The position numbers and the translations under genes were made by a program. Of a DNA stretch of 5,140 nucleotides, positions 1 through 5,140 are shown one piece after another (the stretch's first letter is position 1; each line of letters begins with the position of its first letter). This stretch comes from a virus (Duplodnaviria; Heunggongvirae; Uroviricota; Caudoviricetes), in the IMG/VR virus record IMGVR_UViG_2698536640_000007, positions 1 through 5,140 of that record; one strand, 5' to 3'. Under the pieces are notes generated by a model. That model made no database searches and was not told the origin of the DNA. It saw nothing but the letters and a program-made list of their open reading frames with translations.

Positions 1-348
1 AATTTTGTAAATCTTCACACCCAGCCGACCACCAAGAACAAGCTGACCACGTACAATATTGATTTCATCAAACTGCTCATCGTCCATTAACAACCCCGCA
101 TGCGTAAGCGCATCCAGCGGTGCTTTCAGAATATTGTCCAGGTCACGGCGGCGCTTATCCGGTGGTTCTGCAATAATTTTTATTGCCAACCGTCCGGACA
201 GGCTTAATTTCAAGCGCTGCTGGCGAACAATAAGCGCCACTGCCCGGCGATAACGCTCCCCGGCTTTTGATACAAAATATGTGCTGCCACGGCGTCGCCA
301 GTAAGTGTTCACCGTCGGCGGGTAAGGTAAAACCAAATCTATGAGCAT
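1..348 (-). CDS. rusA: Holliday junction resolvase RusA (crossover junction endodeoxyribonuclease); C-terminus cut by window edge
   Basis: Minus-strand frame from ATG at 348-346 is open to position 1 (116 codons) and translates MLIDLVLPYPPTVNTYWRRRG...DKRRRDLDNILKAPLDALTHAGLLMDDEQFDE..., matching RusA as recalled, including the acidic DxD and DD motifs. SD AAGAGGTG lies 4 nt upstream. The ORF-track entry 155..355 is a different, out-of-frame reading of the same DNA. Confidence 0.8.
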   Translation of the reverse strand, partial: MLIDLVLPYPPTVNTYWRRRGSTYFVSKAGERYRRAVALIVRQQRLKLSLSGRLAIKIIAEPPDKRRRDLDNILKAPLDALTHAGLLMDDEQFDEINIVRGQLVLGGRLGVKIYKI

Positions 349-360
349 CAGTCACCTCTT

Positions 361-1410
361 TTACCCAAGCACGCCAGTTGCAAAGGCGTGATCAAGAAAA
401 CGAAAAATTAAATCAACCTGAGAACCATGCTTTTCTTCGAACGCCAGCGGATCCGCATGAAGCTCGTTGTGATGCTCCCGACACAGCGGTAGCGTGAAAA
501 TATCGTGAGATTTTGTCCCCATTCCGCCCTGACCATGACCAATCAGGTGATGGGGATCGTCGGCTGGCTTACCACAACACGCACACGGCTGTGTCTTCAC
601 CCAGCGTTTGTATTTCTCGTTAACCCAGCGGCGACGTTTAGGTCGTTTCATGAAAGATTCCGGAGACTCAGGATCAACGGCAATGCTGACCACCGTCTTT
701 TCCTGTGGTGAGTTCTGTTGCTGGTGGGCGTGAGGCAGCGGCGCAAGATTTTTTGTGCGCTGTTTCAGGATGCTGGTGGCGGTCTGCTCTCCCGGCACGA
801 TGTCGCTCTCGCGGTATACTGAGCGAATTTTTTCCGCACGTAACCCCAGAGAACGACGTAATGCTGCCTCTGGTAGCGCGTCCGCCACCTGATTGCAGAC
901 CGCCCACCAGGATAATTCAGCCAGCGATAATTCCCGCTCCTGCGTGCCATTCATTGCATGGCGTATGACGTCAATCATCCATGCTGACAAGTTTTGATGA
1001 GCAAGTTGCTCGAGTGATTCGGATGTCTGGTCACGCAGCTGGTTGTCGCAGTGCCAGCACAACACCATTGCGCCGGTACCATAACGGTGAATAACGGTTT
1101 CGCTGTGATGATAATCGCCGTGTGGCCACTGGCAGGATTTAATATGGCGCAACAGCCAGTCAGACAATGCACCAGCACCACCAGCAGCACGAATTACCCG
1201 TGCGTTACTGAAAAACGGCAGCAATGTTTTGTCTTCCACCAGCGGCTGGCGAACGGCAGGAACGACCCCGGACGGCAGATTACGCATGCTTTTCGGTTCC
1301 GGCTCCACCAGTACCCGGGTATTGTGGAATATAGGCATGGATTCACGGCCTGGCTTAAGGACCACCAGCCCGAGTTCCGGAACCAGTACAGGTCGAAGTA
1401 ATACCCGCAC
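361..1410 (-). CDS. ydfU: YdfU-like DUF968 prophage protein with C-terminal Cys/His HNH-like zinc-finger motif (NinG-position gene)
   Basis: 349-aa ORF from the track. Start is GTG at 1410-1408, preceded by GGAGGT (1421-1416); the upstream gene's TAA stop (1414-1412) sits inside this SD. C-terminus carries CACCGKPADDPHHLIGHG...CREHHNELH. Length and position next to rusA match E. coli Qin prophage YdfU as recalled. Confidence 0.8.
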   Translation of the reverse strand: MRVLLRPVLVPELGLVVLKPGRESMPIFHNTRVLVEPEPKSMRNLPSGVVPAVRQPLVEDKTLLPFFSNARVIRAAGGAGALSDWLLRHIKSCQWPHGDYHHSETVIHRYGTGAMVLCWHCDNQLRDQTSESLEQLAHQNLSAWMIDVIRHAMNGTQERELSLAELSWWAVCNQVADALPEAALRRSLGLRAEKIRSVYRESDIVPGEQTATSILKQRTKNLAPLPHAHQQQNSPQEKTVVSIAVDPESPESFMKRPKRRRWVNEKYKRWVKTQPCACCGKPADDPHHLIGHGQGGMGTKSHDIFTLPLCREHHNELHADPLAFEEKHGSQVDLIFRFLDHAFATGVLG

Positions 1411-1411
1411 G

Positions 1412-1690
1412 TTACCTCCAGATGCGTTGCTGGAATGTGCGGGACGGACGCGGTGGGCGTTCAGAGTAAGGAAGCCTGACGGAGATTATCCAGTGACGAT
1501 AATCGAGGCTGAGGGTTTTCCTAAACTCATACCCACGTCTGCGGTAGTTCTGAATCAGCCATTCGGCCTGTTCTTCAGTGCATGGGGCGTGCTGGAACCA
1601 GTCAGATTTGAATGCATGAGAACGCCGCCCGTGCCTGCTGGCAAAGACGGCTGAATTATCAGAATTGTATAATTTGGTATCGTGCGCCAT
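1412..1690 (-). CDS. Hypothetical phage protein, 92 aa (MAHDTKLYNSDNSAVF...)
   Basis: The track ORF 1412..1771 begins at a TTG inside the U-tract of an intrinsic terminator; the only in-frame ATG is at 1690-1688. Stop TAA at 1414-1412 abuts the ydfU-like start. The SD is weak (AGAGA), so the exact start is uncertain. Confidence 0.55.
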   Translation of the reverse strand: MAHDTKLYNSDNSAVFASRHGRRSHAFKSDWFQHAPCTEEQAEWLIQNYRRRGYEFRKTLSLDYRHWIISVRLPYSERPPRPSRTFQQRIWR

Positions 1691-1758
1691 CGGTTGTCTC
1701 TGCTGGCGCAGCAGGTGCCAGTTGTTCAGGCTGGCATGCGAATTGTAAACCAGAATGC

Positions 1759-1790
1759 CAGGAAAAAACAAAACCCGCCGAAGCGGGTTA
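1759..1790 (-). terminator. Rho-independent terminator of the hok transcript (minus strand)
   Basis: On the minus strand: AACCCGC-UUCG-GCGGGUU (7-bp GC-rich stem 1772-1778/1783-1789, 4-nt loop) followed by UUUUGUUUUUUCC. The plus-strand reading has no T-tract, so it is unidirectional. Confidence 0.7.
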
Positions 1791-1791
1791 A

Positions 1792-1808
1792 GTGCGGGTG
1801 CGTTGAGG
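1792..1808 (-). promoter_or_regulatory. fbi-like 3' fold-back element of hok mRNA, complementary to the transcript 5' end
   Basis: Plus 1792-1808 GTGCGGGTGCGTTGAGG is near-identical to the reverse complement of plus 2173-2188 (CTGCGGGTGCTTGAGG): 15 matching positions with one single-base bulge, about 370 nt apart on the same transcript. Confidence 0.6.
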
Positions 1809-1857
1809 ATGCCTGACTCATCAGAGGTGGCGAGGGATTTCTCCCTCGCCAGGTCTC

Positions 1858-2013
1858 TTACTCCTCAGGTTCGTAAGCTGTGAAGACAGCGACCTCCGTC
1901 TGGCCGGTTCGGATTCGTACCTCGCAGAGGTCTTTCCTCGTTACCAGTGCCGTCACAATGACGGTAATACAGATGACGATCAGGGCGATTAACATCGCCT
2001 TTTGCTGCTTCAT
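1858..2013 (-). CDS. hokD: Hok/Gef family type I toxin, 51 aa (MKQQKAMLIALIVICITVIVTALVTRKDLCEVRIRTGQTEVAVFTAYEPEE)
   Basis: Hand translation of the minus strand from ATG 2013-2011 to TAA 1860-1858. SD AAGGAG lies 9 nt upstream. Single transmembrane helix followed by the conserved RKDLCEV...TEVAVF...YE periplasmic tail of Hok/Gef proteins; closest in memory to HokD/RelF and HokC. Absent from the ORF track because it is below the length cut-off. Confidence 0.85.
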   Translation of the reverse strand: MKQQKAMLIALIVICITVIVTALVTRKDLCEVRIRTGQTEVAVFTAYEPEE

Positions 2014-2071
2014 AGCCTGCTTCTCCTTGACCTTTCGGTCCGTAAGAGGCTAACCTACGTGTGTAGAGCAT
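1865..2071 (-). CDS. mok: Mok-like overlapping reading frame (modulator of killing), 68 aa
   Basis: Track ORF that starts 58 nt upstream of hok and overlaps almost all of it in another frame, as mok does in the R1 hok/sok locus. GAGG lies 9 nt upstream of its ATG. Confidence 0.55.
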   Translation of the reverse strand: MLYTRRLASYGPKGQGEAGYEAAKGDVNRPDRHLYYRHCDGTGNEERPLRGTNPNRPDGGRCLHSLRT

Positions 2072-2130
2072 AGATATGGCCTCAGATTAATGTTAAGCGT
2101 CTTGCCGGACGCGTAATGTTAACTGGGGCT
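2060..2130 (+). ncRNA. sok: Predicted Sok-like antisense RNA (coordinates approximate)
   Basis: Inferred from hok/sok architecture: the antisense RNA should be complementary to the hok mRNA leader around the mok start. A candidate plus-strand promoter is TTGACC (2027-2032), 18-nt spacer, TAACCT (2051-2056). I could not define a clear 3' terminator. Confidence 0.3.
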
Positions 2131-2172
2131 TTTCTCTATCTGCCTTTTGGTGTTCATGCCTGAGACAGATAG

Positions 2173-2196
2173 CCTCAAGCACCCGCAGCGATTTTA
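2173..2196 (-). promoter_or_regulatory. hok mRNA 5' end (tac-like element) with candidate -10 hexamer
   Basis: Minus-strand TAAAAT (2196-2191) followed by GCGGGUGCUUGAGGCUAUCUGUCUCA, which resembles the R1 hok mRNA 5' end as recalled and pairs with 1792-1808. The predicted transcription start is about 2184-2186. Confidence 0.45.
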
Positions 2197-2227
2197 CAGA
2201 AATAAGTTATTATTTTCTATCTCACCC

Positions 2228-2254
2228 TTCACTTATCTCATTCCTAGCTATACT
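2228..2254 (+). promoter_or_regulatory. Candidate sigma70 promoter for the 57-aa plus-strand ORF
   Basis: TTCACT (2228-2233), 15-nt spacer, TATACT (2249-2254), about 30 nt upstream of the ORF at 2286. The spacer is short, so this is tentative. Confidence 0.3.
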
Positions 2255-2285
2255 CATCGTTCACACAACATTAAAGGGCATAAAA

Positions 2286-2459
2286 ATGACCGTTCATGGT
2301 ATACAGGAAGGCAGTATTGTTAACTTACGTGAAAAAGATGGGGAATGGCTTGTAGTACAAACTATTAAAAACGACGACCTTACATATCAACTCCGAAATA
2401 CAGATACCAACGAAGAAGTAAACGTCGCACTTCAGGACATTATCTCCCCAAATAAATAA
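2286..2459 (+). CDS. Hypothetical small protein, 57 aa (MTVHGIQEGSIVNLREKDGEWLVVQTIKNDDLTYQLRNTDTNEEVNVALQDIISPNK)
   Basis: ATG at 2286 with SD AAGGG 7 nt upstream and TAA stop at 2457-2459. It is the only plausible plus-strand gene in the window, divergent from hok and convergent with the 114-aa gene. No confident family assignment. Confidence 0.5.
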   Translation: MTVHGIQEGSIVNLREKDGEWLVVQTIKNDDLTYQLRNTDTNEEVNVALQDIISPNK

Positions 2460-2468
2460 TCAAATCAG

Positions 2469-2489
2469 CGGGGCGCACGATACCCCGCA
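2469..2489. terminator. Hairpin between convergent genes (possible terminator)
   Basis: GCGGGG-CGCACGATA-CCCCGC, a 6-bp GC stem. On the minus strand it is followed by the U-rich stretch UGAUUUGAUUAUUUAUUU; on the plus strand the downstream sequence is not T-rich. Confidence 0.3.
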
Positions 2490-2580
2490 CTATTCCACTT
2501 ATCACCCCAGCGGCAAATCGAATACACCACCAGCGCCACCGCCATTGCAATTCCTACCGTTGTTAATGCTTCAGGCCAGG

Positions 2581-2925
2581 TCATCGTAAAATATCCTCCA
2601 CGCTTATCAGTCCGTTCCGCTCCAGATAACTCATCGCCTTATCCGGTAATTTGCAGTCTGGCTTCGCTTTCCTCAGTTGCCAGGTTAACTGCTTTACCAG
2701 CATGGTTAACTCATCGACCAGACGCTGATATCCCACTGGTTTGTATTCATGCAATTTACCGGCTGGCTCTGCTGCCAGCGATACCAGTGCGATTTCCAGA
2801 ACAGCAATATCCATCTTATATGTGCGGATGATGTCATGGTCGATTGTGCCCGGTATGCACAGTCTCTGTGCTTCAATAGTCTCCTCTGCGTGAGCTATTA
2901 ACTGCTCTCTGGTAAAAGTCGTCAT
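2581..2925 (-). CDS. Hypothetical protein, 114 aa, translationally coupled to the upstream HNH endonuclease gene
   Basis: Track ORF. Its ATG (2925-2923) overlaps the HNH gene's TGA (2924-2922) as ATGA; SD AAGGGG lies 7 nt upstream. No family recognised. Confidence 0.7.
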
Positions 2926-3287
2926 GCCGTAGCCCCTTCTTGATATTTTTCAAACCAGAACACAACCGGGTCAGATTTCATTTCAACCAATCCCATACGA
3001 ACCAGCGCTTTGCCTTTCCCGGACGCAAGGAATTCACGACGACCATCACTGATAATTCGCCGATAATCTTCCAGACTACTGCAATGCTTGTGCAGATTGC
3101 ATGGGTGGCATGCCGGAACCATGTTGGATATATCGTCACGTTCCTGGTGAAGCATATTTCCATTAAAACGAATGACCGGTTTTACATGGTCTGCATGCCA
3201 CTTTTCGCCAAGTTCGCAGCCGCAATAAGCACAGCGACCACCGAACTTCATGCGCAGTTCTGCGCGTTGTTTTTTCGTCAGTGCCAT
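2922..3287 (-). CDS. HNH endonuclease, 121 aa
   Basis: Start moved to the internal ATG at 3287-3285, which has SD AAGGAAA 8 nt upstream; the track's longer ORF 2922..3377 runs into the preceding gene. Protein [38 protein letters not shown]...[14 protein letters not shown] carries the CxxC...HxxH...CxxC...H pattern of HNH nucleases. Confidence 0.85.
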
Positions 3288-3288
3288 A

Positions 3289-3519
3289 TCAGCTTTCCTT
3301 ATACGGATTAATTTTATTGTGCAGTGTGTTGAATGACGCACATACCACGTCGTTATACAATTCAATAACTGGCTCAATTATTTTTCCGATTATCCAGACT
3401 AGGATTAACGGGGATATCGGTATCATCAACCCCATCCGTCGGTTGCTGAGTCTCACCCACTGCCAGACGCCAGGAGCGTTTCTACGAACTAACAGAATCT
3501 TTGCTTTACGGTTTTTCAT
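3289..3519 (-). CDS. Hypothetical small protein, 76 aa, basic N-terminus and hydrophobic core (possible membrane protein)
   Basis: ATG at 3519-3517 with a strong SD (AGGAGA, 8-nt spacer). Stop TGA at 3291-3289 is 1 nt from the HNH start. The 3' half lies in AT-rich DNA, so it is less certain as a coding region. Confidence 0.45.
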   Translation of the reverse strand: MKNRKAKILLVRRNAPGVWQWVRLSNRRMGLMIPISPLILVWIIGKIIEPVIELYNDVVCASFNTLHNKINPYKES

Positions 3520-3691
3520 CGCTTTGCTCTCCTGCGTCTCTTTGCTGCTCGTCGTGCCGCTGCAATACCGGTATGGCGGCGCTTTGGTGCCGGGATGATG
3601 TTGTCAGCCATCAGGACATGTGGCTTTGCAATTAGCGCAGAAGCCCAAAAACGAGTCGGGTACGGTAACAAGCCGATACATGCCACACGCA

Positions 3692-4477
3692 TTACTCACC
3701 TCCTTTGATGCGAATGCCAGCAGCGCGTGGCACATTAACTTCCACGATGCGCACTGTTGGTTTGTACATCTCAATCGCTGTCAGCCAGTCAGCTCCTGTC
3801 ATGCGCTTTTCCGCATCGCCATTAGTCCACTTAACCGGTACACCAATAGACTTCATCGCGATTTCTATTTCCCCGGCGATGGCGCTTTTTCCGCAACCAG
3901 TAAAACCAGATACAACGACAAGAACTTCGCCTTTGGCTGGTTTTATTTCCCGTGCTTCCTGCCCTGATTTGCGCAGCAAAACAGCGTACTTTAATGCGTC
4001 CTGGGCTTTCTGAAATTTCAGTGCATAGTCAGTGGCGATTTTCTCCAGTTCAGCAATACGCTTACTCCCATCCGAGATAACACCTTCGTAATACTCACGC
4101 TGCTCGTTGAGTTTTGATTTTGTCTCCTCAAGCTCAACTCTCAGCTTCCCAACCGTAAGCGCAATATCCTCGTTCTCCTGGTCGCGGCGTTTGATGTATT
4201 GCTGGTTTCTTTCCCGTTCATCCAGTAGCGCCAGTACGGTAGCTGGGTTAGCATCTGCTATAAATTCAGCGTTTGCATAAGCCTGAGCATCTGATTCAAT
4301 CAGGCAGTTAACATGACATTCGGCAATCACGCCACCGGGTTCTCCTTTCCATTTTTGACAAACAAAAACTCCTGTTAAATTGCCGTGCTGGTTAACAGAT
4401 GTATGCCCTACGATGTAGCTTCCTTTAGTTGCTTTCTCTGCCTTTTCACGCAGTGCCTGATAGTTAATCTCGCTCAC
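3692..4477 (-). CDS. Ead/Ea22-like prophage protein, 261 aa, with central coiled-coil
   Basis: GTG start at 4477-4475 with SD GGAGG 7 nt upstream, overlapping the upstream TGA as GTGA. N-terminal ...QALREKAEKATKG...AEFIADANPATVLALLDERE... resembles Ea22-family proteins as recalled. The middle is rich in heptad-like charged residues. Confidence 0.6.
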   Translation of the reverse strand: MSEINYQALREKAEKATKGSYIVGHTSVNQHGNLTGVFVCQKWKGEPGGVIAECHVNCLIESDAQAYANAEFIADANPATVLALLDERERNQQYIKRRDQENEDIALTVGKLRVELEETKSKLNEQREYYEGVISDGSKRIAELEKIATDYALKFQKAQDALKYAVLLRKSGQEAREIKPAKGEVLVVVSGFTGCGKSAIAGEIEIAMKSIGVPVKWTNGDAEKRMTGADWLTAIEMYKPTVRIVEVNVPRAAGIRIKGGE

Positions 4478-4698
4478 TCTTCATCCTCCAAGTCGGCAAC
4501 GGCGTCCATCACATCAGAACCGCGAATAACCTCAAAAGCACGGCAGGCCATTTGAAATACCAGTTGCTCTTGCGGGTGAGGAGACTCCCAATATTTGAAG
4601 CCTGGGCGATGCGTGTACCCCATCATTGAATAAAAATCACCAGCAAGCTTAATCGCGGCATCGACAAGCTCTCTGTTAGTCATTCTTTTTCCGCTCAC
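4474..4698 (-). CDS. Hypothetical small phage protein, 74 aa
   Basis: GTG start at 4698-4696 preceded by AGGAGG with a 6-nt spacer; overlaps the upstream TGA as GTGA. An in-frame ATG at 4683 is an alternative start (69 aa). Confidence 0.6.
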   Translation of the reverse strand: MSGKRMTNRELVDAAIKLAGDFYSMMGYTHRPGFKYWESPHPQEQLVFQMACRAFEVIRGSDVMDAVADLEDEE

Positions 4699-5045
4699 TG
4701 GTTGCCTCCTTTGCGAAGCTGGGCGGCTAACTCATCACATATGTGCGTCAAAGAACAAAGTTTGATTGATGGATGTTCGCGCATCATCTCTACCCCCTGC
4801 GCCCGCACTTCAGACAGGAAAGCATCGGTGGCTGGCATATTTCCTGTTGCCTTCATTGCCTCCAAAATAACCAGAACGCCATCTCGCCCAATCTCCTCGC
4901 AGATAACCTCGGTGCTGTCGCCAACAACATCGCAAAATGCCTGAACTGCTTTACGAGCCAGCGCATCTTCCGCCCTGTGAAACGCCTCGCGGTTGAAATT
5001 TTCATATCCCGTCATTGGACCGGCAATATAAACTCTCACCCTCAC
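4695..5045 (-). CDS. DUF4406-like (nucleoside 2-deoxyribosyltransferase-like fold) protein, 116 aa
   Basis: GTG start at 5045-5043 preceded by GGAGGT with a 6-nt spacer. N-terminal MRVRVYIAGPMTGYENFN matches the YIAGPMTG signature I associate with DUF4406/NDT-like proteins; the rest of the protein is not recognisably conserved. Confidence 0.5.
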   Translation of the reverse strand: MRVRVYIAGPMTGYENFNREAFHRAEDALARKAVQAFCDVVGDSTEVICEEIGRDGVLVILEAMKATGNMPATDAFLSEVRAQGVEMMREHPSIKLCSLTHICDELAAQLRKGGNQ

Positions 5046-5140
5046 TCCATCACCTCCTGAAAGTTTCCCCGATAGAACGCCAGCACACGCTGCATAACTT
5101 CGCTCCTCCTGCTCTCACGACAAATTATGTTCTGCCGTCT
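5042..5140 (-). CDS. 3' end of an upstream phage gene (partial; N-terminus beyond window)
   Basis: Minus-strand frame open from the window edge to TGA at 5044-5042 (...RQNICRESRRSEVMQRVLAFYRGNFQEVME*), and the stop overlaps the next GTG start as GTGA. Alternatively only the last 17 codons (ATG 5095, SD AGGAGGA) are translated. Confidence 0.35.
   Translation of the reverse strand, partial: RRQNIICRESRRSEVMQRVLAFYRGNFQEVME

Follow-up and report, generated by a model that had tools for sequence, protein, structure and literature searches.

An intact hok/mok/sok-type toxin-antitoxin cassette in the nin region of an Escherichia coli lambdoid prophage, with a proposed role in lysis after induction

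Introduction

What occupies a stretch of about 430 bp that looks empty on the map of a lambdoid prophage? The question is raised by 5,140 nucleotides of phage DNA (positions 1 to 5,140 of IMG/VR record IMGVR_UViG_2698536640_000007; hereafter the window, by which this whole stretch is always meant), which carry a run of minus-strand lambdoid-prophage genes. The answer that we defend here, with high confidence, is that the gap holds a type I toxin-antitoxin cassette, hok/mok/sok, which is intact, belongs to the HokD/HokW subgroup and is seated at a conserved early-right (nin) site of an E. coli lambdoid prophage, with a mechanism and a role in lysis after induction as proposed below. An earlier note on this DNA had called a complete hok/mok/sok module, and the call is borne out by protein and RNA models, by alignment with the copy in phage 933W and by a full set of regulatory elements.

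Elements of this kind are already known: they have been annotated in 933W, studied experimentally in 2021 and are present in most E. coli genomes, and since earlier work has described the family, how its RNAs act and how it is enriched in prophages, no new question is opened by finding one more. The main value of the present analysis is one of annotation, because ORF callers can easily overlook the 51-aa toxin gene, the mok frame and the Sok RNA (RefSeq records at the module locus annotate hokD only). A correct call accounts for 430 bp of the prophage map that would otherwise seem 'empty', and the window copy provides an intact reference for the degenerate hokD of E. coli K-12.

The toxin gene

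The hok gene lies at 1858-2013 on the minus strand, where the earlier note had placed a 51-aa Hok/Gef gene. The reading frame is there, and its product, MKQQKAMLIALIVICITVIVTALVTRKDLCEVRIRTGQTEVAVFTAYEPEE, matches Pfam HOK_GEF (PF01848) over the entire model (1-42 of 42), with an E-value of 9.7e-24 and a score of 83.2 bits (cut-off 22). A second match is to PHROG 251, 'MokW-like host killing' (E 2.8e-33), whose category is 'moron, auxiliary metabolic gene and host takeover'. The peptide has a hydrophobic stretch at residues 7-24 and a cysteine at position 30, as expected of Hok/Gef proteins, which have an N-terminal hydrophobic helix and a conserved periplasmic Cys. The closest named relatives are HokD (RelF) of K-12, identical at 50 of 51 positions (98%), and HokW of phage 933W, identical at 46 of 51 (90%), and HokD is the RefSeq name given to near-identical proteins. 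Membership of the HokA or R1-type subfamilies was considered and dropped, since both NCBIfam scores of the peptide fall under their curated cut-offs: 48.1 against 73 for NF007279 (Hok subfamily) and 39.9 against 89 for NF007290 (HokA equivalog). The earlier note described the gene as missing from the ORF track; at 51 aa, the frame is shorter than the 60-aa threshold usually applied when ORFs are listed.

Upstream of the start codon, a Shine-Dalgarno sequence (GGAG, 2023-2026, minus strand) can be read from the sequence, and it is mostly paired in every predicted fold (P unpaired ~0.25). Within the gene, the Tyr47 codon UAC is followed by GAA, which creates a UACG motif at 1875-1872 (1872-1875, minus strand) that is a candidate site for A-to-I editing by TadA, changing Tyr to Cys. 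A Tyr at the matching Hok position followed by a conserved GAA codon was described in a preprint as the signature of TadA editing, which was reported for hokC/D/E, and by analogy full toxicity of the window Hok may also require that Tyr47 be edited to Cys. A Pfam match to DUF6232 (18 bits, under its cut-off of 27) was set aside.

The hok mRNA

A consensus scan predicts a hok promoter at 2191-2219 on the minus strand, with a -35 box TAGAAA (2219-2214), a 17-nt spacer and a -10 box TAAAAT (2196-2191), matching consensus at 9 of 12 positions. The earlier note had bounded the module at 1757-2196, which is nearly right and takes in the -10 box, but leaves out the -35. The -10 box sits 7 nt upstream of the 5' end (2184) of an Rfam match described below, so transcription is predicted to start at about 2184-2186, i.e. 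where that match begins. Homology with most relatives starts at 2197, between the two boxes, which implies that the -35 of the window copy derives from a different upstream segment: in the window this segment is AT-rich (34-39% GC), while most relatives share upstream sequence of a TTTGCGG type. The level of hok expression is uncertain for this reason. The replaced -35 region, together with a Tyr47 whose editing may be required before the toxin is fully active, is what one could expect if the cassette, though intact, had no function and were, like most chromosomal hok loci, a passenger that is selfish or in decay. This is the null hypothesis, which we regard as very unlikely and to which we return below.

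The transcript would open with a typical hok leader. The region 2011-2184 (minus strand) matches Rfam RF01794 across the full model (1-157), scoring 109.5 bits (gathering score 59; E 4.4e-25), in agreement with the claim in the earlier note that the module has its own 5' leader and with its suggestion to check hok/sok RNA families. Although RF01794 is named 'sok', what it models is the hok leader, since the match has the orientation of hok and runs up to its AUG; Sok is complementary to part of it. The loci of 933W, of R1 type and of Vibrio are matched by the same model, whereas the truncated hokD of K-12, which has lost its leader, is not. That the ORF and the RNA structures arose by chance in phage intergenic DNA, an idea favoured by nothing but the shortness of the ORF, can be discarded outright, given protein E-values of 1e-23 to 1e-33, an RNA E-value of 4e-25 and matches in thousands of genomes. 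Sub-threshold Rfam matches to isrK (27.8 bits against 50), CsrC and ceN48 were rejected, being explained by the hok 3' hairpin and terminator or by the leader.

At the other end, there is an intrinsic terminator at 1763-1789 on the minus strand, with a 7-bp stem (1789-1772) that contains five G-C pairs, a UUCG loop and a T tract (1771-1763), in line with the terminator described in the earlier note. Promoter and terminator together delimit a predicted full-length hok mRNA of ~419 nt (1768-2186, minus strand). Folding of this transcript (2186 to ~1768), a check that the earlier note had proposed, gives -180 kcal/mol, with a z-score of -8.7 relative to shuffles. In an alignment of 10 relatives, 96.2% of cells are paired in the window fold (a figure to be read with the caveat that one member of the alignment supplied the structure) against 33-41% with slid partners, and changes on both sides of a pair number seven against one or two in the slid controls. 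A 10-bp stem-loop in the 3' UTR (1828-1851, minus strand), which was identified by folding, shows one compensatory change, from A-U to G-C, among relatives. Such helices, which stay paired by compensatory change, argue against a decaying passenger, as does the fact that all of the elements are intact.

A further structure joins the two ends of the mRNA. The first 14 nt of the transcript form a tac-like 5' end (GCGGGUGCUUGAGG, 2173-2186, minus strand), which in the full-length fold pairs with 1794-1808 with a P(unpaired) of 0.00. Its partner is an fbi-like element (CCUCAACGCACCCGC, 1794-1808, minus strand), found 49-66 nt past the hok stop codon. The duplex is 14 bp long, with a predicted stability of -27.7 kcal/mol that is equalled by only one of 300 shuffled 3' regions, and we interpret this modelled pairing as the 5'-3' clamp of the Gerdes model. 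The same register is common to the loci of 933W, R1-type (GGCGCUU/AAGCGCC) and a Vibrio plasmid (GGGUGCUCUUGGU/ACCAACGAGCACCC), so that the sequences change on both sides across distant loci and the pairing is retained. It was not found in one locus (L007), whose 3' region is a group II intron. Among the 10 close relatives the 14 pairs are invariant, which again speaks against a silent cassette, and support from covariation comes solely from the distant loci.

What happens when the clamp is lost can be partly followed by equilibrium folding. A 5' hairpin (2156-2182, minus strand) that would sequester tac in nascent or 3'-truncated mRNA appears in folds of 2130-2186 and of truncated transcripts, and once fbi is deleted in silico, the 5' end adopts this tac hairpin instead. 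In the same equilibrium calculations, the Shine-Dalgarno sequence of mok is no more accessible after fbi removal (P(unpaired) 0.25 in both states), and the notion that it would open after 3' trimming is borrowed from the literature.

The mok frame and the Sok antisense RNA

The mok-like frame that the earlier note had seen overlapping hok is present at 1865-2071 on the minus strand, and comprises 68 codons. It is supported by the ORF itself, by comparison with mok of R1 and by a match to phrog_37205 (E 1.6e-20). The frames of mok and hok differ, with the mok stop lying 7 nt ahead of the hok stop. Eight nt upstream of the mok AUG (2071) there is a Shine-Dalgarno sequence (GAGG, 2080-2083, minus strand; read from the sequence), which falls within the region complementary to Sok. 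The window thus has a mok frame (2071-1865) that overlaps hok and has a Shine-Dalgarno sequence of its own, as is characteristic of hok/sok loci, and coupling of hok to mok is predicted. Across this prophage lineage, mok is out of frame with hok in four loci, including the window, and in frame in 11.

On the opposite strand and convergent with hok, a Sok promoter was found by eye at 2027-2056 (plus strand), with a -35 box TTGACC (2027-2032), an 18-nt spacer and a -10 box TAACCT (2051-2056). The consensus promoter scan made no call here, the site being below its threshold, with a -10 that matches at three of six positions. The promoter was nevertheless accepted because this -10 is homologous, and in fact identical, to the -10 element of sokW, which has been validated by mutation: Takada et al. 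obtained a promoter-less sokW by replacing TAGGTTA, as read on the hok strand, with CCGGCTC (primers YO-421/422). Transfer of the annotated 933W sokW coordinates by alignment then places a Sok-like antisense RNA of ~71 nt at 2063-2133 (plus strand), complementary to the mok Shine-Dalgarno sequence and AUG. Its predicted fold has the canonical Sok shape, in which a 5' tail of 15 nt stays unpaired ahead of a long hairpin that is followed by a U tail (-28.6 kcal/mol, z -5.4). With its promoter and U tail, this predicted RNA would be the cis-encoded antisense Sok characteristic of hok/sok systems. Another allele of the Sok hairpin is found in the PPompW phages and in one further locus (L010), and we infer that such allelic differences may limit cross-talk among copies present in one cell.

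Proposed mechanism

From the anatomy of the window and the literature on R1 and hokW, the cassette would be expected to work as follows: (i) a weak constitutive promoter would produce a stable hok mRNA of ~419 nt, (ii) clamping of tac to fbi would keep this full-length mRNA closed to translation, (iii) slow 3' trimming would strip fbi and let the 5' end refold, (iv) the ~71-nt Sok, made from the convergent promoter in the leader, would pair over the mok Shine-Dalgarno sequence and AUG and block translation of mok, (v) as hok translation would depend on that of mok, this block would reach hok and (vi) the duplex of Sok and hok mRNA would be cut by RNase III. If Sok synthesis stopped, the trimmed hok mRNA would be translated, and the 51-aa Hok would enter and collapse the inner membrane.

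Relatives in 933W, K-12 and R1

The closest known system is mokW/hokW/sokW of the Stx2 phages 933W and Sp5 (VT2-Sakai), which is ~91% identical to the window at the nucleotide level from the -10 box to fbi, with homology ending on both sides. The Sok hairpin, the Sok -10 box and the tac/fbi sequences are identical in the two, and each module is carried by a lambdoid prophage and shares its strand with an early operon. They nevertheless differ in several respects. In 933W, a 1-nt difference puts mok in frame with hok, which yields a 70-aa fusion ORF, whereas mok is out of frame in the window; sokW departs from the window Sok at several positions of the 5' tail, as does the target of that tail; the -35 region is unlike that of the window; and fbi is followed by other sequence without an equivalent terminator, whereas the window has a terminator of the K-12 type. 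The 933W copy lies near attR at the right end of the prophage, while the window copy lies in the nin region. The 933W record annotates the module as mokW/hokW/sokW, 'prophage maintenance', which, albeit a prediction, fits the idea that the main role of such a cassette is to stabilise the prophage by post-segregational killing of cured cells (see below).

The second relative, hokD (relF) in the Qin prophage of K-12, is identical to the window in the hok Shine-Dalgarno sequence, the 3' UTR, fbi and the terminator. Everything upstream of the hok Shine-Dalgarno sequence (tac, the mok start, the Sok gene and its promoter) has been lost there and relBE is found instead, whereas all of it is intact in the window. 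The order in Qin is ydfU-rem-hokD-relE-relB, with hokD upstream of ydfU, which is a prophage position shared with the window. The left neighbour is rem in K-12 and a 92-aa ORF in the window, and both genes occur together in the PPompW phages. K-12 hokD is a truncated relic, of which the window shows the intact, ancestor-like form. A truncated copy at the matching prophage position is an argument for regarding such cassettes as passengers on the way to decay.

The prototype of the family, hok/sok (parB) of plasmid R1, has the same architecture as the window: its leader matches the Rfam model that the window leader matches, its tac and fbi pair in the register seen in the window, and its Sok is likewise convergent. 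Its mok has 70 codons (in locus L005, which encodes the exact R1 Hok) against 68 in the window, and in both cases mok overlaps hok out of frame. R1 and window Hok are only ~41-44% identical, and the hokW paper gives 44% identity between HokW and R1 Hok. The pairing elements also differ in sequence, with tac/fbi GGCGC/GCGCC in R1 against GGGUGC/GCACCC in the window. The C-terminal Tyr is found in R1 Hok as well, but the residues around it are different. Unlike the window copy, hok/sok of R1 is plasmid-borne and has a demonstrated role in post-segregational killing.

Genomic setting and distribution

On one side of hok lie the 92-aa ORF (1412-1690), DUF968/YdfU (361-1410) and a partial RusA gene (1 to ~355), which is how the earlier note had described these neighbours. 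On the other side it had placed hok next to an HNH cassette, and here the description needs correcting: the HNH gene (2922-3290) is not directly adjacent, as three ORFs (of 114 aa, 39 aa and, on the plus strand, 57 aa) intervene. The 57-aa ORF has a marginal match to PDC-M49B in PADLOC (E 0.003), which we regard as due to chance.

Is the cassette a moron, as the earlier note had it? It has a promoter and a terminator of its own, and its Hok falls in a PHROG category that bears that word. When other phages and plasmids are compared, homology breakpoints coincide with the module edges (~1764-1786 on the left, 2197-2206 on the right). Moreover, the module occurs in at least three settings, i.e. 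the nin region (as in the window), the right end of 933W by attR, and plasmids, mostly non-mobilizable and of ~90-100 kb. Own promoter and terminator, breakpoints at the edges and several settings together fit a mobile moron. Against this, an empty site was not found in the contexts of the exact 92-aa neighbour, in phage matches to the DUF968/92-aa flank or at the PPompW locus, and the position is conserved. In all 10 distinct contexts of the exact 92-aa neighbour, hok is present at equal spacing and DUF968, RusA and Q come after, with variable genes upstream, while in the PPompW phages the order is Q-rusA-ydfU-92aa-rem-hok. Since hok is there in every context examined, the insertion would be old, and in the lineage of the window the module marks, as a fixed landmark, where a variable accessory region meets the conserved ydfU-rusA-Q block. 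With this proviso, 'moron' is a reasonable label.

The module is widespread. It has matches in 4970 of 5426 complete E. coli genomes (labelled hokD in RefSeq), with a median of two places per genome and a maximum of 11, as well as in 102 phage records and 600 plasmids. In one assembly (L011), the module is 100% identical to that of the window and positions 1-2942 of the window are 99.8% identical. So many copies per genome would fit the selfish spread of a silent element.

Biological role

The biological role of the window module is not settled, and the discussion is best started from hokW-sokW, which is the subject of the only direct experimental work on a prophage copy (one whose mok is in frame, unlike that of the window). 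The 2021 study of the Sp5 copy established it as a working type I toxin-antitoxin system, in which HokW is toxic and sokW neutralises it, with contributions of RNase III and Hfq. Both RNAs are present in the lysogen, and Sok RNA vanishes upon RecA-dependent induction. HokW localises to the inner membrane and appears ~1 h before the endolysin. Deletion of hokW-sokW delays growth arrest by ~40 min and halves phage release (~2-fold), and has no growth phenotype when the prophage is not induced. By analogy, the likeliest role of the cassette in the prophage would be to bring about earlier lysis and more phage release after induction, with prophage retention and exclusion of other phages as possible side effects. 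We therefore rank assistance to lysis above stabilisation and exclusion, the two roles that the earlier note had put forward and that are legitimate suggestions.

The same findings weigh on the alternatives. That a 91%-identical cassette is active and has a measurable phenotype speaks against the window copy being a mere passenger, although that reading does find some comfort in reports that chromosomal hokA/B/C give neither post-segregational killing nor a rifampicin response. The failed killing tests also count against stabilisation of the prophage through the killing of cured cells, which is the classical role of hok/sok on plasmids and which we consider rather unlikely as the main role here: loss of hokW-sokW is without a growth phenotype absent induction, and excision of the prophage is normally followed by lysis anyway.

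Defence is another role to be weighed, whereby an invading phage that shuts off host transcription would let Sok decay, and the ensuing release of Hok would cause abortive infection or superinfection exclusion. The precedent comes from R1 hok/sok, whose effect on T4 the earlier note had mentioned, correctly as cited in two papers: carried on a high-copy plasmid, it made T4 plate 42% less efficiently and form plaques ~85% smaller. This effect is modest, however, and was seen at high copy number. In addition, the PADLOC defence catalogue has no model for Hok and gave no match for the window Hok, a survey preprint covering 44,248 Hok homologues saw enrichment in prophages but none near defence systems, and the sole study of a prophage copy found an effect in favour of the phage that carries it. 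Defence as the main role is thus unlikely in our eyes, and a contribution to lysis after induction remains the preferred reading.

How could such a cassette sense induction? In both contexts examined, hok lies at the downstream end of an antiterminated early operon and is co-directional with it: the operon concerned is the rightward one (O/P-nin-Q) in the window and the leftward one in 933W, in the latter case only once excision joins attR to attL. A tentative idea, which builds on gene orientation and on the published phenotype and to which we would give rather long odds, is that this placement makes the module an induction sensor, in which read-through from the early operon would hit the convergent Sok promoter, silence Sok through transcriptional interference and release Hok. 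If true, it would explain why Sok RNA is lost only on induction, a point left open by Takada et al.

A hybrid predicted promoter and a possible second, AT-rich moron next to hok

At the upstream edge of the hok module, homology to most of its relatives begins at position 2197, exactly between the -35 and -10 elements of the predicted hok promoter. Most relatives have the AAAACGGTTTGCGG sequence in common upstream of hok, whereas in the window this is replaced by a -35 element (TAGAAA) that derives from the adjacent AT-rich segment. To judge from these alignments, the predicted hok promoter in the window is a hybrid.

The neighbour that supplies the -35 element (2197-2460) has a G+C content of 34-39%, compared with 50-57% in the flanks, and is rare, with at least 80% of its length covered in eight genomes. 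It contains a promoter-like site (2260-2287) and a 57-aa ORF (2286-2459, plus strand), which is convergent with the prophage operon and is annotated as hypothetical in the RefSeq record of one relative (L010). This ORF has no match in Pfam, PHROG or NCBIfam, and its only PADLOC match, to PDC-M49B, is marginal (E 0.003). The AT-rich segment and its ORF look like a second moron, separate from the adjoining hok. Just upstream of this segment and of hok lies a terminator-like site (2468-2488), in which a T-rich tail comes after a G+C-rich hairpin. The site is formed by the last codons of a hydrophobic 39-aa ORF (2465-2584, minus strand) that overlaps the 114-aa ORF by ATGA.

On a larger scale, L011 is the closest of the relatives found: its identity is 99.8% over positions 1-2942, and it diverges beyond, near the point where the 114-aa ORF meets the HNH gene. 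In no complete E. coli genome does coverage of the window reach 80%. Together, the break at ~2942 and the lack of such genomes show the usual lambdoid mosaicism.

Variation within the module

Within the module itself, a 1-nt indel near position 2033 toggles the mok frame; it falls in a hairpin with a GAAA loop that separates the start of mok from that of hok. In the window and three relatives (L002, L011 and L013), mok is out of frame and encodes 68 aa, as in R1, while in phage 933W (L001), L010, L012 and L014-L021 it is in frame with hok, giving a 70-aa fusion that is the form annotated as MokW in 933W. Both states are found within one prophage lineage, at the same position.

In its evolution the antisense (Sok) region looks like a variable cassette, since two relatives, PPompW (L021) and L010, have a different Sok-hairpin/target allele that is 20 nt shorter (aligned to ~2085-2125), although their hok is almost unchanged. 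The Rfam family RF01794 ('sok antitoxin') matches positions 2011-2184 on the minus (hok-sense) strand and its match ends at the hok AUG; despite its name, this family in practice models the hok mRNA leader and not the antisense Sok RNA. The Rfam model of isrK, an sRNA from a Salmonella prophage, gives a weak match (1768-1849, minus strand; 27.8 bits, below the threshold of 50) that spans the hok 3' stem-loop and terminator, and this is probably a mere resemblance between pairs of hairpins.

As for the toxin, the Tyr47 codon (UAC) is followed by G, which creates a UACG motif (1872-1875, minus strand) that is also present in HokW of 933W. UACG at this conserved Hok position has been reported as a signature of TadA A-to-I editing (Tyr to Cys).

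Rearranged hok loci in other replicons

The relB-relE-hok arrangement of the K-12 Qin prophage (L003) is also found on a Citrobacter freundii IncFIA plasmid (L009, 1-647), so the relBE-hok fusion is itself mobile; in both loci the hok leader is absent and there is no Rfam match. In a Salmonella plasmid locus (L007), a group II intron (713-860; Rfam D1-D4-7, 111.6 bits) lies directly downstream of hok, where it eliminates the fbi region and lengthens the Hok ORF to 59 aa. Phage 933W has an above-threshold match to the Rfam family sRNA-Xcc1 (5249-5337, minus strand; 69.1 bits, threshold 53), without annotation in the record, ~2.4 kb upstream of hokW and near the right end.
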